From the NCBI GenBank assembly GCA_963662265.2, contig CAXXHA010000008.1:90004-154003 (forward strand): DNA of 64,000 bases. The letters run 5' to 3'. Positions 3,008 through 35,233 of this stretch are shown here, one piece after another. A program made the translations under genes and the position numbers. The notes below the pieces were generated by a model, which did no database searches, was not told the origin of the DNA, and saw only the letters and a program-made list of their open reading frames with translations. Every line of letters begins with the position of its first letter. Position 1 is the first letter of the stretch. This stretch comes from Spirochaetia bacterium (GTDB lineage: Bacteria > Spirochaetota > Spirochaetia > CADAEX01).

Positions 3008-3916
3008 CTAAAGAATTCCCAGTGATTTCTTCAGGGAATTGAGAGTATTTTTCATCAGCATTGTGATTGTCATCGGCCCGACCCCGCCCGGTACAGGGGT
3101 AATGGAACCTGCAATCCCGCTTATTTCATCAAAATCAACATCACCCTTGAGAACAGCAATATTTTTACCTGTTTTTTTACTTATTTTTTCACCAATCCTG
3201 TTGACCCCGACATCTATGACACATGCCCCGGGCTTTACCCATTCAGGCTTTACAAGTCCCGGAACACCGGCAGCAACTATAAGTATATCAGCCCTTCTGC
3301 AGTGAACATCCATCTCTTTTGTTCCTGTGTGAACTACAGTTACTGTTGCATTAGCCCTCTCGCCTTTCTGGAGAAGCATGTTTGCAACCGGTTTGCCCAC
3401 AACATTTGACCTGCCGACAACAACAACTTCCGCCCCGTTTGTCTCAACACCTGATCTCTTTATCAGCTCGATAATTCCTGCAGGTGTGCAGGGGGGGAAT
3501 ATAGCTTCTTTACCGCCTACAATGAGCCTCCCCACATTTACCGGGTGAAATCCGTCAACATCCTTTTCAGGATCAATAGCATAGATGATTTTTTTCTCAT
3601 CAATATGCTTCGGCAGGGGAAGCTGGACAAGTACTCCGTTGATTGAATCATCATTGTTATACTTATCAATTTCTGCAAGAAGATCTTTCTCTGAAACAGT
3701 ATCCGGAAGGTTAACCTGAACCTCATGAAACCCGAGACTTTCCGCCGTCTTTATTTTAAGTGTCACATAGGAAACTGATGCGGGATTCTCCCCCACGAGA
3801 ATAGTCACAAGTCCGGGGATTTTCCCGTATTTCTCTTTTATTGAATCAGTCTCCTCTTTGATTTCCCTGAGGATTTCTTTTCTGATCTCTGTACCACTGA
3901 TTATTTTAGCTGCCAA
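3008..3916 (-). CDS. folD: Methylenetetrahydrofolate dehydrogenase/cyclohydrolase
   Basis: VQLPLPKH, KDVDGFHP, PCTPAG, GRSNVVGKP, TPVPGGVGPMT motifs; TTG start. Confidence 0.96.
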   Translation of the reverse strand: MAAKIISGTEIRKEILREIKEETDSIKEKYGKIPGLVTILVGENPASVSYVTLKIKTAESLGFHEVQVNLPDTVSEKDLLAEIDKYNNDDSINGVLVQLPLPKHIDEKKIIYAIDPEKDVDGFHPVNVGRLIVGGKEAIFPPCTPAGIIELIKRSGVETNGAEVVVVGRSNVVGKPVANMLLQKGERANATVTVVHTGTKEMDVHCRRADILIVAAGVPGLVKPEWVKPGACVIDVGVNRIGEKISKKTGKNIAVLKGDVDFDEISGIAGSITPVPGGVGPMTITMLMKNTLNSLKKSLGIL

Positions 3917-3994
3917 ATCATCTCCCTGTTTTCATTTCTTTTTATATATTAAAAAAAGCGCCGGATTATATCACGGCGCTATTATAACATGTTT

Positions 3995-4846
3995 TCAACC
4001 CAGAAGCGCTTTAAGCTCTTCAAGTGTTTCCTTTTTTATGCTGAATGAGTGTTCAGGTCCCGGAAAACTTCCCTCCTTGACCTCTCTGCTGTACATGGAA
4101 AGCGCCTTGACAGATTCTGAATAAATATCTGCATAAACCTTCACAAACTTTGGTGTAAACTTCCTGTACATTCCAAGCATGTCATGATAGACAAGTACCT
4201 GCCCGTCACACCCTGCGCCTGCTCCTATTCCTATAGTAGGGACAGAAATCTTTTCCGTGATAATTTGTGCAAGCCCTGAAGGAATTGCTTCAAGCACTAT
4301 TGCATATGCACCTGCCTCATCAAGGGCTACAGCATCATCCACCATTTTCTTTGCAGCATCAAGCTTCTTACCCTGTACCTTGTGTCCCCCGAGAAGTGCT
4401 GCTGTCTGGGGAGTTAGCCCTATGTGGCCGCATACCGGGATACCTGCCTTGAATACAGCGCTAACTGTATCGGCATAGTCTGTCCCCCCTTCAAGCTTGA
4501 CAGAATCGGCCCTTCCTTTCTGGTAGAGTATGCCTGCATTTTCTATTGCCTGTTCTTTTGAAATATTGTAGCTCATGAAAGGCATATCGCCAATAACATG
4601 GGTATCCGGTGCTCCCCTCGTAACAGCCCTGATATGGATAAGCATATCATCCATTGTAACCGGGACTGTATCGCTGTATCCCAGTTCCACCATACCGAGA
4701 GAATCCCCGACAAGAATCATATCTACCCCGGCTTCCTCTGCTATCTGGGCCTGCGGATAGGAATAGGCAGTTACAACAGATATTTTATCTCCCTCTTTTT
4801 TCATGTCTTTAAGATTATTAAGAAGCAGTTTGCTGTTTCCTGACAT
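3995..4846 (-). CDS. panB: 3-methyl-2-oxobutanoate hydroxymethyltransferase
   Basis: LVGDSLGM, GDMPFMSY, VKLEGG, GHIGLTPQ, IGIGAG, GQVLV motifs. Confidence 0.96.
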   Translation of the reverse strand: MSGNSKLLLNNLKDMKKEGDKISVVTAYSYPQAQIAEEAGVDMILVGDSLGMVELGYSDTVPVTMDDMLIHIRAVTRGAPDTHVIGDMPFMSYNISKEQAIENAGILYQKGRADSVKLEGGTDYADTVSAVFKAGIPVCGHIGLTPQTAALLGGHKVQGKKLDAAKKMVDDAVALDEAGAYAIVLEAIPSGLAQIITEKISVPTIGIGAGAGCDGQVLVYHDMLGMYRKFTPKFVKVYADIYSESVKALSMYSREVKEGSFPGPEHSFSIKKETLEELKALLG

Positions 4847-5058
4847 AATTACATCTCCTCATTATTTCAGTCATTCAATTTTCAGGCATTTTACCCATCT
4901 GATCCATATAACGGAAACCATATCAGATATTACCTGATACATCCGGCAGATCAGACAGCTGAAATATTTCTTCCATATCACACATATATTTAATGCATGA
5001 CAGATTATTCACAGAAATCTTTGTAAATTATTCACTTTTTCTGTAAAATCCAAAAATA

Positions 5059-6315
5059 TTAAAGTATATCGGAAATCACCTTGATTATTTTCTCCGCAAC
5101 TTCCTGCTTTGTAGCCATGGGTATCTTTATGTTCAGTCCCTCCCTGGAGAGCAGAATCATCTCGTTTGTGTCTGATTCAAACCCGGCACCGGATTTTGAA
5201 ACATCATTGACTGCAATCATATCAGCTGCCGCCTTGTTCATTCTCCAGGATGCATTTTCAACAAGGTCTTTTTCCTCCATATCATGAAGAGCCCTGAATG
5301 CAAGGAGAAATATATCAGGATACTTTTCCCTGATACTGTCTATAATCTTCGGTGTGGGTTTCAGTTCTATTGTAAGTCTGTCCCTGTTATGGGTTGAAAC
5401 CTTCTCAGATGAAGGATTAAGAGCCTGCCAGTCTCCGACAGCTGCAGCCGATGCAAAGAGGTCATATTTTTCCCCTGAAAGCTCGCTGTGGACTGCCCTG
5501 AACATTTTTTCCGCTGTTTCACCGTCAACAACTTTTATTCTTGATGATGGCTTAACTGTTATCTTACCAGCCACAAGCGTGACATCCGCCCCTGCCCTTA
5601 GTGCGGCTTCCGCAATTGCTACCCCCATCTTGCCTGATGAGTTGTTTGATATCACCCTGACAGGATCAAGGTATTCTACAGTCCTTCCCGCTGTCACAAG
5701 CACCCTCTTGCCTTTAAGCGGCTTGTTTTCAGTCTCGCTGTCCAGTATTTCTATGACTTTTTCAAGTATATCGCTGTTTTCAGGTATTTTAGCCTTACCC
5801 TCTTCGACACGGGGCATCATGACAGTAATACTGTTTTCTTCAAGCTTTCTGATGTTTTCCTTTACAAAAGGATGCCTGTACATAGGCTCATGCATTGCAG
5901 GGACCACGATAAGAGGTATCCCCTCGCCGAGGCCTGTAGTGACAAATGTTGTCACAGGTGTATCATCTATTCCGCATGCAATTTTTCCCACAGTGTTGGC
6001 TGTTGCAGGAGCTACAAGGATAAGATCTGCCTTTCCCTTGACATTTCCTGCCAGTGAAACATGTTCAACTTTGCCAGTTATTTCAGTTACTGCCTCATTT
6101 CCTGTCGCCCAGTGCATGAGGTCCGGGTGAATTATACCGCAGGCAGCCCTGCTCATAACAGGATAAACATCTGCCCCGTATCTCATGAGAAGCCTTGCAA
6201 TTTCAGATGCTCTCACTGCAGCAACACTCCCGCTTATGCAAAGCACTATTTTCTTTCCGCAAAGATCATCTGACAGAGTGCCTTTTATATCAAGGGAGGG
6301 ATGTTTTTCAGTCAT
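5059..6315 (-). CDS. coaBC: Bifunctional phosphopantothenoylcysteine decarboxylase/synthetase, archaeal-type
   Basis: Flavoprotein domain (SGSVAA, EHVSLA, APATAN, PAMH) plus synthetase domain (TAGRTVEYLDPVRVISNNSSGKMG, AAVGD, LKPTPKII). HPSLDI N-terminal extension and PRVEEGKAK clamp. Confidence 0.93.
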   Translation of the reverse strand: MTEKHPSLDIKGTLSDDLCGKKIVLCISGSVAAVRASEIARLLMRYGADVYPVMSRAACGIIHPDLMHWATGNEAVTEITGKVEHVSLAGNVKGKADLILVAPATANTVGKIACGIDDTPVTTFVTTGLGEGIPLIVVPAMHEPMYRHPFVKENIRKLEENSITVMMPRVEEGKAKIPENSDILEKVIEILDSETENKPLKGKRVLVTAGRTVEYLDPVRVISNNSSGKMGVAIAEAALRAGADVTLVAGKITVKPSSRIKVVDGETAEKMFRAVHSELSGEKYDLFASAAAVGDWQALNPSSEKVSTHNRDRLTIELKPTPKIIDSIREKYPDIFLLAFRALHDMEEKDLVENASWRMNKAAADMIAVNDVSKSGAGFESDTNEMILLSREGLNIKIPMATKQEVAEKIIKVISDIL

Positions 6316-6380
6316 ATTTCACTCCTATAACATGATAAAACAGTTTTTTATCATTACTTTCCTGACGCTATTATAATACT

Positions 6381-6639
6381 GCTTTCGAGCACTTTCTCTT
6401 CGAGAAAGTCTCTGTCGCTTATTGCAAAACAGGGTTTTGCAATTTTTCGAGCACTTCCTTTCAGGGAGTCTCTGTCGCTGATGATAAAAACTTATCATTT
6501 CTTTCTTAAACGCTTTCGAGCACTTCCTTCCAGGGAGTCTCTGTCGCTGATGATAAAAACTTATCATTTCTTTCTTAAACGCTTTCGAGCACTTCCTTTC
6601 AGGAAGTCTCTGTCGCTAATGATAAAAACTTATCATTTC
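6381..6639. repeat. Four-copy tandem structured repeat (period 62, 69, 69 bp)
   Basis: TTTCGAGCACT...AGTCTCTGTCGCT core starts at 6383, 6445, 6514 and 6583, each followed by a palindrome (ATGATAAAAACTTATCAT or ATTGCAAAACAGGGTTTTGCAAT). Confidence 0.95.
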
Positions 6640-6688
6640 CTGTTTTATTATATATTCAGGTTTGTTTTATTCCTTTGCAGCATCAGCC

Positions 6689-7468
6689 TCACACAGTGTC
6701 TGCAAGTTCTTTCACATGTTCAGAAATATGTATAAGCGATGCTTTGAGTACTGCCCGGTTATCATACTGTTTAAGAAGACTCTGGAGTTCTTCCCTGCTT
6801 TTATCTTTCATCTTTCCAATATAGTTGCAGATACATGGCAGAGCACGTGTAATATTGTCAATAATTGAAATATCTGCTTTTCGGGGAGTCCTCGAAATGG
6901 GATTAAGATCAACAGTTACAACTTTCTTTCCCATTGCAACAAGTGCATCTGTCCTGTCTCCGTCTTCAAGAGGAACAAAGACAAGGTCGGCTTTTAGTAT
7001 CCCGTCAGGGTCCACTATTCTCCTGTCACTTGAGAGTTCGGGGATTGTTGCACCCATTTTAAGTCTCTCCTCGGTACCGAGGACCTCATCAGCGCCTGCC
7101 TTCTCAAGGACTTCAAGTATTGCAGCTTCCCGTCCATTTTCCCTGTAAAAAAGGTTTATCTCGAGTTTTGCACCTGAGATTTTTGAAAGCTCAACAAGTT
7201 CTTCGGGGACCAGCTGTGCGACATTGCCGTTAACAGAAATTACAGGACGTTCTGCCAGAAGAAAAGCTGCTGCTGCTGCCTCGCATGCCCTGTCTGCAAA
7301 AGGGGCTGTCTTTTCCCCTATCAGGTAATCAAAAGCCTCGCCCCTTCCCTGGGCAATAAGACCTGCCGGAGCCACAATTTTCTTTTCGCATCCCTTTATC
7401 AGGTTATGCCTTATCATCATCGCCTTGTAGCGGGGATGATCTTCCGGTATATTAATCTTCACTGACAA
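6689..7468 (-). CDS. 4'-phosphopantoate--beta-alanine ligase (phosphopantothenate synthetase, PPS; archaeal COG1701 family)
   Basis: IPEDHPRY, GLIAQGRGEAFDYLIGEKT, PVISVNGN, EINLFYR, VPLEDGDRT, VDLNPISRT and IIDNITRA are diagnostic of the archaeal PPS family. Confidence 0.93.
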   Translation of the reverse strand: MSVKINIPEDHPRYKAMMIRHNLIKGCEKKIVAPAGLIAQGRGEAFDYLIGEKTAPFADRACEAAAAAFLLAERPVISVNGNVAQLVPEELVELSKISGAKLEINLFYRENGREAAILEVLEKAGADEVLGTEERLKMGATIPELSSDRRIVDPDGILKADLVFVPLEDGDRTDALVAMGKKVVTVDLNPISRTPRKADISIIDNITRALPCICNYIGKMKDKSREELQSLLKQYDNRAVLKASLIHISEHVKELADTV

Positions 7469-8384
7469 TTCTTACTCCCCCTTTTGCAATATTTGAATAA
7501 AAAAGCTGAGGTTTAACATCTGAATCAATCTTTTTTATTATTTCAGTATATATTTTCTGCATTTTTCCAAGCTCATCCTTGTCTATAATTGAGAAAGTAC
7601 CCTCGCCGAACATAAGCATACTGCTTTTTATTCCCCTGAGGTCAAGTTCATCAAGTATCATTCTGACACTGGATGGAATAATTCCCGTACTTTCAGCAAA
7701 TGCTCTCGAGTATTCCATGAATCTCTCAAATTCCGGAGTCTCCTGTATCATGCTGTGGTATTTTTCACCGCTTTTCATAATACTTTCACGGACTTCAGGG
7801 TTGCTTAAAGCCTCGCTTGTGGAATAGGGACCGAAAACTATGAATGCGGCATAAAGCCCTTTCGGATACTTTATTGAAATAGTCTTCCCTATTCCGGGGG
7901 CTCCCGGTTCAACAAGGACTTTGAATCCCCCCATGGTCTCTCCCATGACTGTACCGAGACCTGTCTTGCAGAGGACTTCAGCGACATGCGCTATCTGGGA
8001 TACCTTGATTGCGCTCAGCGGATCATTGTAGAGGCGGTTCAGAGCAAATGCAAGGCTCAAGGCGCCTGAACCGCTTGATCCGAAACCTGCGCCCTGGGGC
8101 GTCTCAATATGATGCCTGATATCGACCTGCCTGTACGGGATATCTGCCCAATCATGAAAAAGTTCAACAACTTTCCTGCTGACAGGAGCATCACAGTTCT
8201 TATCACGGTTAATGGAAACAGCAGTCTCTGATATTTTGCTGTTAAACGAAACTGAAGTAAAAGCTCCCTTTTTCAGGGAAAACCCGGATCCCAGAGATCC
8301 CCTGTAGAGGGGGTCTTCAATCAGATCCTTCATATAAAACAATCCGGTAACGTGACCGGGAGAAAACGCAATAACCTTGTTCAT
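7452..8384 (-). CDS. Pantoate kinase (PoK; GHMP superfamily, archaeal COG1829 family)
   Basis: AFSPGHVTGLF, GSLGSGF, PQGAGFGSSGSGAL (GHMP ATP loop), AHVAEV..KTGLGTV, PGAPG. Overlaps the PPS gene. Confidence 0.9.
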   Translation of the reverse strand: MNKVIAFSPGHVTGLFYMKDLIEDPLYRGSLGSGFSLKKGAFTSVSFNSKISETAVSINRDKNCDAPVSRKVVELFHDWADIPYRQVDIRHHIETPQGAGFGSSGSGALSLAFALNRLYNDPLSAIKVSQIAHVAEVLCKTGLGTVMGETMGGFKVLVEPGAPGIGKTISIKYPKGLYAAFIVFGPYSTSEALSNPEVRESIMKSGEKYHSMIQETPEFERFMEYSRAFAESTGIIPSSVRMILDELDLRGIKSSMLMFGEGTFSIIDKDELGKMQKIYTEIIKKIDSDVKPQLFYSNIAKGGVRIVSED

Positions 8385-8481
8385 AACACTGAGTATCTAA
8401 CATAAGCGTTTTTTTTTCAACACTATACATAAAGGTTATCAACTACTTACAAAAGAATGAGTTTCTGTTATGCTTGGAATA

Positions 8482-9411
8482 ATGAAAACAGCAATAATCG
8501 GTGCAGGTGCTATAGGAAGTCTTTTCGGATCACTTTTGAAAATAAACAATATTGATGCAGTTTTATTTGACAGGGACCAGGATAAAATAAACTATATTAA
8601 AAACAACGGGCTTAAGCTGATCTATCCGGGTAACGGAGAAAGCTTCAGGATTTATCCGGAAGCAGAATCTGATATCATGAAAATAAAAGATTTTGACTAT
8701 TATCTCATGTGCGTGAAATCATATTCAACAGAAGCTGCTGCAGCTGAAATCAGTGCAGTATGCAGCAGTAAATCTGTTATTGTTACTTTTCAGAACGGCA
8801 TGGGAAATGTAGATATACTGAAAAAATATTTCCCGGAAAGCAGAATTGCTGCAGGTACAACATCGGAGGGGGCATCGTTCAAGTCACCCGGTACTGTTAT
8901 ATACGGAGGTAAAGGAAAGACCTCTTTTTCAATTATAGATGCAGGTAATGACAATAAAAAGCTCGGGCAGCTCATAACAATGCTGAATAACGGAGGCATT
9001 GATACCTCCCGGGCAGACAACTACAGGAGGGATATATGGAAAAAGCTTATTGTCAACGCTGCAATAAATCCCTTAACTGCAGTTCTCAGGGTCAAAAATA
9101 TTTCTGTCTCAGAATCCCCCTGTCTCAGGAACCTTGCTGAAATGATAATTTCAGAATCTGTAAAAGCGGCAGAAGCTGACGGGATATTTTTCGATTATGA
9201 AGAGATAAGAGAAAATGTATTTAATATTGCGGAAAAAACTGCTGAAAACAGGTCTTCGATGCTCCAGGATATAGAAAACAAAAGGAAAACAGAGATTGAC
9301 TATATATCGGGAACTGCGGCAGACAGGGCGGAAAAAGCAGGAATAGAAAAATCTGTAAACAGGATAATGCAGAATATAATCAAAGTACTTGAAAACAGGT
9401 ACTTCACTTAA
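8482..9411 (+). CDS. panE: 2-dehydropantoate 2-reductase
   Basis: GAGAIG Rossmann motif, [39 protein letters not shown]. Start set to MKTAII at 8482. Confidence 0.93.
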
Positions 9412-9437
9412 AAAAATATAATTGTTACAATTCCACC

Positions 9438-10010
9438 ATGAATGAACAACGAGTACAGGAACTTATTAAAGAACTTCTCATCGAAATAGGCGAAGATCCT
9501 GAAAGGGAAGGACTCCTGACAACACCGGACAGATTTGCAAAAGCATTTTCATTCCTGACTAAGGGATACAACGAAAATATAGAAGATGTCATCAATGGAG
9601 CTGTTTTTACGACAGAAAGCAACAACATGGTGATCCTCAGGGATATTGAGGTTTACAGCCTGTGTGAACATCACATGCTTCCCTTCTACGGGAAATGCCA
9701 TATCGGATACATACCTAAAAACAAGCTGCTTGGAGTAAGCAAGCTTGCAAGAATTGTGGAAGTTTATGCAAGAAGGCTCCAGATACAGGAGAGGCTCACT
9801 GCACAGATCGCAGATGCCATAAAAAATGCCATTGATGTTGAGGGAGTCGGCGTTGTAATGGAATGCAAACACCTCTGCATGATGATGAGGGGTGTTGAAA
9901 AGCAGAATTCCTTCATGACAACATCAACAGTACTCGGAAGTTTTCACAACCAGCTGGCAACAAGGCAGGAATTCATGAATCTTATAGGGATAGGAAGAAC
10001 ACAGCTCTGA
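9438..10010 (+). CDS. folE: GTP cyclohydrolase I
   Basis: [44 protein letters not shown] motifs. Confidence 0.97.
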
Positions 10011-33761: not shown

Positions 33762-34493
33762 TTACCAGCCGTCAGCCATGTCATCGACATCTCTGCTTTC
33801 TTCAGTGAAGAGGTCTGAAACAGCTCTCAGATCATCAAAGTAAACATAATATGTACCGAATGTATCTTCAGGATCACAATCAACCCTGAATCCTGCAAAC
33901 TTGATACCGTTGATATTGGTGTAATGGTAATCTTTCTGAGTTATACTTGGAGGAACAGCTACTGTAAGCTTTTTCCAGCCGGAAAAATTAAGCTTTCCAA
34001 TTGTCAGCTCCATCGGATTTCCGAAATAATCAAGTATCATCATGCTGAGCATATGGTTGTTGTTTCTTCCTGCTACCCATACAGACATTGTCTTGGTGAT
34101 ACCTGCTATTGGAAGAGGTTTTACCGGCATTACTGCAAATGAGTTAACTCCTCTTTTTTCATAATGCACTTTTACCCCAAGAACATACTTGTCATCTTCT
34201 TCAAGTCCAATAGCTTCTTCATCAGCTATAGGTTCTTTGTCGATAGGAGAGCCAACCAGTCTTCTTGTCAGTACGAAACCCTGGTCTCTTGGCATTGCTG
34301 TATAGAAAAAAGCAGGATCTTCGAATTTTACTACAGATATTTCCTTCAGACTCTGCTGAGCCTTATCAACACCGATATTGTTAGGATCAGGATCGCCGGG
34401 GCTTCCACCCTCGCCTACCTGCTGAGCAAAACAAACTCCGGTAATTAGTAATATAAGCAGAAGTAATGCTGCAGATCTTTTAAGCATATACAT
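33762..34493 (-). CDS. flaA: Flagellar filament sheath protein FlaA
   Basis: Signal peptide; VLGVKV, SVWVAGRN, GKLNFSGWKKL, YFDDLRAV. Confidence 0.88.
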   Translation of the reverse strand: MYMLKRSAALLLLILLITGVCFAQQVGEGGSPGDPDPNNIGVDKAQQSLKEISVVKFEDPAFFYTAMPRDQGFVLTRRLVGSPIDKEPIADEEAIGLEEDDKYVLGVKVHYEKRGVNSFAVMPVKPLPIAGITKTMSVWVAGRNNNHMLSMMILDYFGNPMELTIGKLNFSGWKKLTVAVPPSITQKDYHYTNINGIKFAGFRVDCDPEDTFGTYYVYFDDLRAVSDLFTEESRDVDDMADGW

Positions 34494-35233
34494 TAGTTAC
34501 CCCCTCCTGATTCTGGTGCAGTCCAGTCCATATTATTGATACTATCTTTTTCTGCCAGATTATCACCATCAAATCTAGTGATAAAGATATCTGTAAGAAC
34601 TTTAATCTGGTCAAAGAAAATAAAGAAATTATCAACTTTTTCTTCAGGTCTTGTCCAGACAACTATTTTCGCAAGACTTAACTGCTTTATTTTCGGAATA
34701 TAACTTCTTCCCTGGGGAATATAATTTGGAATTCTCACCTTCAGATTTTTCCAGCCTTCATATTTCAGGCTGCCGAGAGGAAGAACATGTGTAATGCCCC
34801 TGTAATCAGTAACATGAATCTCGGCATAATAGTCATAATTTGACCCCCATGCCCAGAGATCTATCATTTTACATCTTCCCGGAATTGGAATACCGGTAAA
34901 TTCCCCTTCTTCATTTTTTATATCTGGAATAAGTTCAATAAAATTATAACCATGTCGGTCAAACTGACCATTTACACCAAGTACCTTATAATCTTCACCT
35001 TCAGAATTTGAACCATAAAGAGCTGCCGGCCACGCCTTGGGAAATGCTTTCTTAGGAAATCCTTCATGAGAAAATTTACTTCCTTTGACTATCCACCCGT
35101 TCTCTTCAGGATTATCAAAGTTATCAAGTATTCTTGATACCAGGTTTTCTGTTCTTTCGTCAGCATAAACCGGTAAAGTGAGTAGCACAGACATCAATAT
35201 GAAAAAGCCGAATACCAGGCCTGCTCGTCTCAT
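34493..35233 (-). CDS. flaA: Flagellar filament sheath protein FlaA (paralog)
   Basis: Signal peptide; WIVKGSKF, DLWAWGSN, LGSLKYEGWKNL, FFDQIK. Start MRRAG follows an AAGGAG SD. Confidence 0.88.
   Translation of the reverse strand: MRRAGLVFGFFILMSVLLTLPVYADERTENLVSRILDNFDNPEENGWIVKGSKFSHEGFPKKAFPKAWPAALYGSNSEGEDYKVLGVNGQFDRHGYNFIELIPDIKNEEGEFTGIPIPGRCKMIDLWAWGSNYDYYAEIHVTDYRGITHVLPLGSLKYEGWKNLKVRIPNYIPQGRSYIPKIKQLSLAKIVVWTRPEEKVDNFFIFFDQIKVLTDIFITRFDGDNLAEKDSINNMDWTAPESGGGN

Follow-up and report, generated by a model that had tools for sequence, protein, structure and literature searches.

The order in which phosphorylation and condensation lead to 4'-phosphopantothenate, on the way to coenzyme A (CoA), has been treated as a marker that separates archaea from bacteria. 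In the classical route PanC is followed by CoaA or CoaX, while the archaeal pair, pantoate kinase (PoK) plus phosphopantothenate synthetase (PPS), is not homologous to these enzymes and is presumed to reach the same product with the reaction order reversed. PMC6650551 terms PoK and PPS 'unique to the archaea'. An unexpected bacterial case is that of the sponge-symbiotic Entoporibacteria, which carry PoK and PPS as well as CoaD and CoaE of the bacterial type (Thomes and Lescure 2020, PMC7883664); in that paper the poribacterial proteins are said to be mis-annotated or generically named 'GHMP kinase', and a transfer from archaea is proposed. Here we analysed a stretch of 64,000 nucleotides (nt) of DNA from a Spirochaetia bacterium (the window; positions 90,004 to 154,003 of contig CAXXHA010000008.1, assembly GCA_963662265.2), in which two overlapping genes encode homologues of PoK and PPS next to a fused CoaBC. 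We consider it probable that an archaeal-type PoK-PPS-CoaBC module was acquired anciently and replaces PanC in this spirochaete family; the parts of this statement that concern homology and transfer are held with higher confidence than the whole.

The original prediction, made from the letters of the window, had named the two genes as PoK and PPS by their motifs, and both open reading frames (ORFs) and all of these motifs were found exactly as it described them. Searches with hidden Markov models (HMMs), which it had proposed as a check, gave PPS and pantoate-kinase models as the top families, with the kinase below equivalog cut-offs. The PPS translation carries HPRY, GRGEAFDYLIGE, EDGDR and DLNPISRT. 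It matched Pfam PF02006 with 234.9 bits (cut-off 26.4) and NCBIfam PRK13761 with 352 bits (cut-off 227), and against the archaeal equivalog NF041123 it scored 300.0 bits, exactly at the threshold of 300. The solved enzyme of Thermococcus kodakarensis (3wdk) was matched with 266 bits over residues 5-257 of 259, and the identity with the archaeal and Cloacimonadota PPS among the best 80 of 499 loci was 49-57%. Among 68 archaeal PPS there are 75 columns with at least 90% conservation; the window ligase keeps the archaeal consensus in 71 of them, differing at positions 16, 17, 40 and 162, and every conserved charged residue is kept. We assign the ligase to the PPS family (PF02006/COG1701).

The kinase translation carries PGHVTGLF, GAGFGSSG and AHVAEVLCKTGLG, and the Gly/Ser-rich phosphate-binding motif PQGAGFGSSGSG is present. 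The GHMP N-terminal domain PF00288 was matched with 37.3 bits (cut-off 22.3). The top two NCBIfam families were pantoate-kinase models (139 and 136 bits), followed by homoserine kinase with 27 bits, and the only PDB match at E<=0.01 was 'Pantoate kinase' 6jbc (133 bits, E 1.6e-37). The GHMP motifs are kept, and so are the residues that correspond by alignment to Ser104, His131, Glu134 and Thr186 in T. kodakarensis PoK. PoK adjoins PPS in 53 of the 54 PPS-linked homologues with full-length PoK, and the one exception (G035) is cut at a contig end. By these matches the window kinase is a divergent member of the pantoate-kinase family (COG1829, GHMP).

The neighbouring CoaBC is also of archaeal type. 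In a comparison set of 251 Spirochaetota genomes the window CoaBC was 60-62% identical to those of its own family and 50-53% identical to those of two other lineages, while every other listed spirochaete CoaBC had 36% or less. The identity was 51-52% with three Bathyarchaeota, up to 54% with some Thorarchaeota, 35-54% with archaeal loci overall and 32% with Escherichia coli. In the CoaBC tree (83 rows) a split with support 100 set 22 ordinary spirochaete CoaBCs apart from a side that holds archaea, Cloacimonadota and the PoK-linked spirochaete clade; the latter clade (support 99) grouped with Bathyarchaeota and Nitrososphaerota (91). When E. coli CoaBC was added, it joined the 22 ordinary spirochaete CoaBCs (23 rows, support 100), with 36-44% identity to its ten best matches among them. 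Rooted with E. coli, the PoK-linked spirochaete clade appears nested in archaeal diversity, which is the best evidence for the direction from archaea to bacteria. Because the window CoaBC groups with archaea and not with ordinary spirochaetes, the transferred block would be larger than PoK and PPS, and the scope of the original prediction, which confined the transfer to these two genes, was too narrow. Two further spirochaete loci of the PoK-linked clade, L141 (G248) and L107 (G027), have an archaeal-type fused CoaBC with PPS not found; PoK was not found in G027, and G248 was not searched for it.

PPS was found in seven of 401 evenly drawn Spirochaetota genomes, this one counted, which belong to the window's family and to families f6, f26 and f29. 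Among the control genomes it was present in 4/4 archaeal and 0/10 bacterial ones. This distribution is in agreement with the horizontal acquisition from archaea that had been predicted, and we infer an archaea-to-bacteria transfer of PoK and PPS. Of the 499 confirmed loci that the scan for PPS gave, the best 80 were used; 68 of these are archaeal, 7 belong to Cloacimonadota and 5 to spirochaetes. The order PoK-PPS-PanE-PanB-x-CoaBC occurs in Cloacimonadota and Bathyarchaeota, and PoK-PPS-PanB-CoaBC in Nitrososphaeria. In the PPS tree (86 rows) the window's family forms a clade with support 98, and Cloacimonadota form a separate clade with support 100. In the PoK tree (61 rows) a single clade (support 99) unites 21 of the 23 spirochaete rows, the two outliers being long branches. 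This clade lies within a group (support 93) that holds Cloacimonadota, Bathyarchaeota/Thermoproteota and Nitrososphaerota. In approximately unbiased (AU) tests of the PoK tree, holding the 23 spirochaete rows together gave p-AU 0.66, with a likelihood better than that of the unconstrained quick search, and holding all 28 bacterial rows (spirochaetes and Cloacimonadota) as one clade was not rejected (p-AU 0.58). It is possible that there was a single entry into bacteria and then spread. The bacteria in the trees are Spirochaetota and Cloacimonadota, with one E. coli CoaBC and no Poribacteria; the donor can therefore be named only as the nearest sampled neighbour, which would be the Bathyarchaeota/Nitrososphaerota and Cloacimonadota clusters.

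PanB gave a different picture within the same cluster. PanB of the window's family forms a clade (support 99) with PanB of PPS-less spirochaete families, whereas the PanB beside PoK/PPS in f26, f29 and two named metagenome-assembled genomes (MAGs) groups with Bathyarchaeota and Cloacimonadota (support 97). In terms of these trees PanB is mosaic within the CoA operon. Movement of the whole cluster as one piece was rejected for the window's family, as its PanB lies in a different clade.

The pathway census covered 41 genomes, this one and 40 relatives. The window's genome has 41 contigs and is 90.6% complete, and absences in it are to be read as 'not found'. There were no matches for panC, coaA and panD in it; coaX was present (179 bits), and coaD and coaE were present and encoded outside the cluster. 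PPS was found in 13 of the 41 genomes and panC in 5, neither was found in 23, and no genome had both. PPS and panB occurred in the very same 10 of the 19 other genomes of the family, and panC in none of these 19. Within the family coaX is limited to the window's genus (2/2 relatives and this genome, versus 0/17 in the other three genera). Since panC was not found and coaX is present, PanC appears to be replaced and CoaX not. The earlier suggestion that the pair takes the place of panC/coaX holds in its first half, as panC was found in none of the 13 PPS-bearing genomes, and fails in its second.

In the pathway that we propose, PanB and PanE would make pantoate, the kinase would phosphorylate it to 4-phosphopantoate, and PPS would ligate beta-alanine to give 4'-phosphopantothenate, which CoaBC would carry onward until bacterial-type CoaD and CoaE complete the CoA pathway. 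The row PoK-PPS-coaBC-panB together with panE is, by its predicted products, a complete pantoate-to-phosphopantetheine module. An ancestor within Spirochaetia would long ago have acquired the block PoK-PPS-CoaBC from archaea, and the block would have taken over the role of PanC, with inheritance in the family since, and in the window's genus CoaX would add pantothenate salvage. The order of the kinase and ligase reactions in this scheme is the presumed archaeal one, and the kinase may accept pantothenate as well.

The sister genus g3 of the same family bears directly on this last point. It comprises nine genomes of 1.2-1.8 Mb, of which eight lack PPS and panB and all lack panC and coaX. CoaA was not found in the five genomes tested, and coaD and coaE were present in the four tested. 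A PoK homologue is found in 9/9 of these genomes (eight full length and one cut at a contig end), with 52-57% identity to that of the window. In seven g3 loci (L093, L099, L100, L101, L102, L103 and L105) the order is PoK-CoaBC-FolD with PoK abutting CoaBC, which looks like the window cluster with PPS and PanB cleanly deleted. The PPS-less g3 kinases group in a single clade (support 95), next to which the lone g3 genome that retains PPS stands as sister. Apart from one G-to-A change in one sequence, they are intact in each of the 41 columns whose conservation reaches 85% or more among the 54 PPS-linked homologues. The pairwise ratio of nonsynonymous to synonymous substitutions (dN/dS) of the kinase was 0.03-0.06 in six closely related genomes (dS 0.67-1.9), and that of the adjacent CoaBC was 0.06-0.08; by this measure the g3 kinase is under strong purifying selection. 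As the kinase is conserved beside CoaBC without pantoate synthesis, ligase or a recognised pantothenate kinase (PanK), pantothenate is the simplest substrate, and the g3 protein would most simply be a candidate GHMP-type pantothenate kinase.

Several observations weigh against the proposed pathway or its origin. The kinase is far under the NCBIfam equivalog cut-offs for pantoate kinase (139 vs 500 and 136 vs 380 bits), both models being built on narrow archaeal groups. The strand motif GG-x-E-[IV]-R, which holds E153 and R155 of T. kodakarensis PoK by alignment, is present in 40 of 61 PoK homologues (29/33 archaea, 5/5 Cloacimonadota and 6 spirochaetes), and all 13 kinases of the window's family instead carry K/R at position 155 with L at position 157 (K155 and L157 in the window). 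Kinases of families f6 and f17 have K155 and S157. We take R155 of the T. kodakarensis enzyme to be a pantoate-recognition residue. In the ligase S16A, L17M and H40Q occur in all 11 PPS of the family, at positions where archaea have 99% S, L and H; at position 162 L or M replaces V in all 11. The archaeal residues are retained by f6, by Cloacimonadota and by most other spirochaete PPS. The backbone of the PPS tree is not resolved, the trees are 'quick' searches, and bacteria beyond Spirochaetota and Cloacimonadota are represented by one E. coli CoaBC only. Finally, the reconstructed pathway has a genuine gap in that a source of beta-alanine was not found in the window's genome, as neither panD nor a PF00282 group II decarboxylase was detected.

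A shift of the kinase towards pantothenate would agree with the substitutions that both enzymes share across the family. The changes E155K/R and R157L would move a positive charge one step along a beta-strand and could let the enzyme extend to the carboxylate of pantothenate, which lies farther away. PoK of T. kodakarensis shows pantothenate kinase activity at a minor level. Together with S16A and H40Q of the ligase, this switch may mean that the pair runs in the bacterial order on archaeal scaffolds. That the archaeal-derived GHMP kinase of the family is a pantothenate kinase, either dual-specific or switched and maybe with the pair in the bacterial order, is a tentative proposal which we rate as somewhat short of probable. 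If it is true, this would be a further, non-homologous kind of PanK, and in small genomes such as those of g3 the sole route from pantothenate to CoA would be this kinase in an operon with CoaBC.

The strict form of this idea, in which the ligase acts on pantoate and the kinase on pantothenate, we regard as unlikely. It draws on the gene losses of g3, on the retention of the kinase there beside CoaBC with low dN/dS and intact conserved columns, and on the family-wide changes of both enzymes at near-invariant columns. However, the ligase retains all conserved charged residues of archaeal PPS, and f6 and f17 share the kinase change, yet S16, L17 and H40 are retained in the three f6 PPS that were examined; moreover, CoaX in the window's genus would then be redundant. 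We know of no pantothenate synthetase activity of T. kodakarensis PPS. It is hardly probable that both proteins have these folds and serve a pathway unrelated to CoA: the genes lie among panB, panE and coaBC, PPS shares its distribution in the family with panB, panC is absent and the sole solved relative is a pantoate kinase, although the kinase scores below the equivalog cut-offs and the name 'GHMP kinase' that NCBI gives to most homologues would agree with such a role. The archaeal order of reactions, with replacement of PanC, is our preferred reading.

Concerning the origin, ancient bacterial inheritance with repeated loss instead of archaeal transfer is very unlikely in our view. In its favour, the route occurs in at least five families of the class, its genes are fully ameliorated and a single clade of bacterial PoK rows was not rejected; on the other side are the narrow distribution of PPS in Spirochaetota and its absence from the bacterial controls, the nesting of the linked CoaBC within archaeal diversity against an outgroup of E. 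coli and typical spirochaete CoaBCs, and the classical panB-panC-coaC-coaB cluster in other spirochaetes of the class. An assembly chimera or contamination with archaeal DNA is practically negligible. The window is the final 64 kb of a 154-kb contig, and the spirochaetal setting seen in the original prediction was borne out by FlaA (PF04620), with three matches in the genome, two of them on the same contig, and none in 14 control genomes. These two are adjacent genes for the periplasmic flagellar sheath (window 33807-35011, minus strand). At the nearest public locus, from a Spirochaetia bacterium, the genes stand in exactly the window's order (FolE-PanE-PoK-PPS-CoaBC-PanB-FolD); the fetched parts of a one-contig genome from this genus read PanE-PoK-PPS-CoaBC-PanB-FolD, and the order is shared across four genera. 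In contigs of a second, independent study, 6589-9887 (PPS-PoK-panE-folE) is in one piece with 22 differences, and 3492-6410 is in another. The continuity and synteny check that had been asked for came out in favour of a genuine locus. A point in favour of a chimera is that no public Logan contig spans the 69-nt repeat lying between PPS and coaBC; every public contig ends within it, and the depth there is about 10 times that of the flanks. Both genes lie within the genome's range of codon usage and GC content: the codon-usage distance of PoK is at the 25th and that of PPS at the 50th percentile among ORFs of similar length, and the z-scores of their GC content, +1.1 and +1.4, resemble those of the neighbouring folD and panB. 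Host-like codon use and family-wide synteny point to an old transfer and speak against an assembly chimera, and the acquisition of PoK and PPS is, judged by composition, old and ameliorated, as had been suggested from codon style. With independent contigs, synteny, composition and FlaA taken together, chimeric assembly was ruled out for practical purposes.

The features of the locus are collected in Table 1.

Table 1. Genes and sequence elements of the CoA locus, in positions of the window.
Feature	Position	Strand	Evidence or remark
PoK homologue, pantoate-kinase-family GHMP kinase	7452-8384	-	310 aa, ATG start, ORF
PPS homologue (4-phosphopantoate--beta-alanine ligase)	6689-7468	-	259 aa, TTG start, ORF
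Fused CoaBC (phosphopantothenoylcysteine synthetase/decarboxylase), archaeal type	5059-6315	-	TIGR00521 372 bits
PanB (ketopantoate hydroxymethyltransferase)	3995-4846	-	PF02548 371 bits, TIGR00222 332 bits
FolD, last gene of co-directional row	3008-3916	-	Pfam and NCBIfam matches
PanE (ketopantoate reductase), divergent	8470-9411	+	TIGR00745 254 bits
FolE (GTP cyclohydrolase I), downstream of panE	9438-10010	+	TIGR00063 248 bits
PoK/PPS overlap and GGGGGAG run	7452-7481	-	overlap 7452-7468, run 7481-7475
69-nt tandem repeat, 2.8 copies	6445-6639	.	PPS-coaBC spacer
Promoter-like site TTGAAA, 17 nt, GATACT	8392-8420	-	consensus scan, 9/12 matches

The genes on the minus strand follow each other in transcription order as PoK, PPS, coaBC, panB and folD, and panE and folE face this row divergently. 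We infer that the row is transcribed as an operon. The adjacency of PanB and FolD was also seen in a PPS-less spirochaete (L131). The ORFs of PoK and PPS are joined by an overlap of 17 nt, and the purine-rich, Shine-Dalgarno-like run lies 6 nt upstream of the PPS start within the 3' end of PoK, an arrangement that suggests translational coupling of the two genes. The stop-to-stop frames of the relatives are compatible with a similar short overlap (their starts are unmapped). The divergent spacer between PoK and panE (8385-8469) is 85 nt, and there is no Shine-Dalgarno-like run before PoK. The promoter-like site stops 7 nt upstream of the PoK ATG, and on the basis of this consensus match the PoK transcript may be nearly leaderless. 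The site is weak evidence for a promoter, as the region has 19 such sites against 16.3 expected, no more than by chance.

The spacer between PPS and coaBC is 373 nt and holds the tandem repeat (96% matches), each unit of which has two short inverted repeats that resemble hairpins. The open frames of PPS and CoaBC are 26 and 3 nt apart in two other genomes of this genus. A large dispersed family of this repeat was ruled out, with 15 mostly partial matches in the assembled genome.

Other spirochaetes showed different arrangements around panB. A gene for an MfnA-like, pyridoxal phosphate (PLP)-dependent decarboxylase lies between PanB and CoaBC in L024 (7554-8783), L058 (7539-8705), L063 (8378-9631), L126 (1968-3152), L129 (4326-5603) and L130 (7175-8371). 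These clusters come from families f26 and f29 of the spirochaetes, from two named MAGs of spirochaetes and from one Bathyarchaeota locus, and the group II enzyme is likely an archaeal-type aspartate decarboxylase that would provide beta-alanine. An MfnA-like gene was not found in the window's genome, where tblastn gave one weak match with 25% identity. In four other spirochaete families panB (and panE where covered) occurs without panC, PPS or CoaBC, and a Peptidase_S58 (DmpA/BapA-like) gene adjoins panB (L131 281-1273, L132 3395-4432, L135 1205-2293, L136 3347-4378). Pairwise identity among the four proteins is 51-61%, and a homologue was not found in the window's genome. The panC-bearing spirochaetes (L118-L122; G025, G026, G033, G037 and G038) have the classical panB-panC-coaC-coaB cluster with split CoaC and CoaB, and coaX directly follows coaB in three of these five.

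In the literature searched, no paper linked PoK or PPS to spirochaetes, and none was found on COG1701 or COG1829. In a preprint on the comparative genomics of spirochaetes (PMC12236494) the terms 'pantothen', 'pantoate' and 'coenzyme A' do not occur. JGI labels many of these spirochaete proteins 'pantoate kinase', while NCBI mostly uses 'GHMP kinase [Spirochaetaceae/Spirochaetia bacterium]', with one 'pantoate kinase [Sediminispirochaetaceae bacterium]'. The databases are ahead of the literature on spirochaete pantoate kinases. The original prediction mentioned rare bacterial cases and none in spirochaetes; the former agrees with the paper on Poribacteria (PMC7883664), and the latter holds for published papers found but not for the JGI names. 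The transfer of CoaBC along with the pair, the presence of CoaX beside this route and the ligase-less kinases appear not to be in print in the literature searched.

The locus and its relatives would add a second and a third bacterial phylum, Spirochaetota and Cloacimonadota, to the holders of PoK and PPS. CoaBC seems to have travelled with the pair. More than the occurrence of the pair itself, what gives the case its interest is the natural experiment in the relatives, with the ligase deleted and the kinase kept. It makes a question testable, namely whether a pantoate kinase can be the only pantothenate kinase of a cell. It also matters for annotation, as scoring these spirochaetes as pantothenate or CoA auxotrophs for missing panC and coaA/coaX would be wrong.

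Compared with the described systems, the window proteins are full-length homologues of T. kodakarensis PoK (6jbc/6jbd) and PPS (3wdk/3wdl/3wdm) with the same predicted role in making 4'-phosphopantothenate. They differ in that the host is bacterial, the genes overlap and stand beside coaBC, panB and panE, the kinase has K155/L157 for E153/R155, and the ligase has A16, M17 and Q40 for S, L and H. In the Thermococcus loci fetched there is no PoK within about 6 kb of PPS, unlike in the window. The clusters of Cloacimonadota and Bathyarchaeota (L013, L017, L018, L026, L063 and L067) have the same gene set and are nearest in the PoK and CoaBC trees, whereas their PanB is in a different clade from that of the window. 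The Bathyarchaeota cluster has the MfnA-like decarboxylase that the window's genome seems to lack, and in Cloacimonadota gene x has the same position. The Entoporibacteria, as PMC7883664 describes them, resemble the window in having an archaeal PoK/PPS pair with CoaD and CoaE in a bacterium under generic annotation. According to the same paper they have no PanK or pantothenate synthetase (PS), the coexistence of both routes is called undescribed, and their CoaBC is called homologous to the E. coli enzyme, whereas the window's genus has CoaX together with PoK and PPS, and its CoaBC is of the archaeal type.

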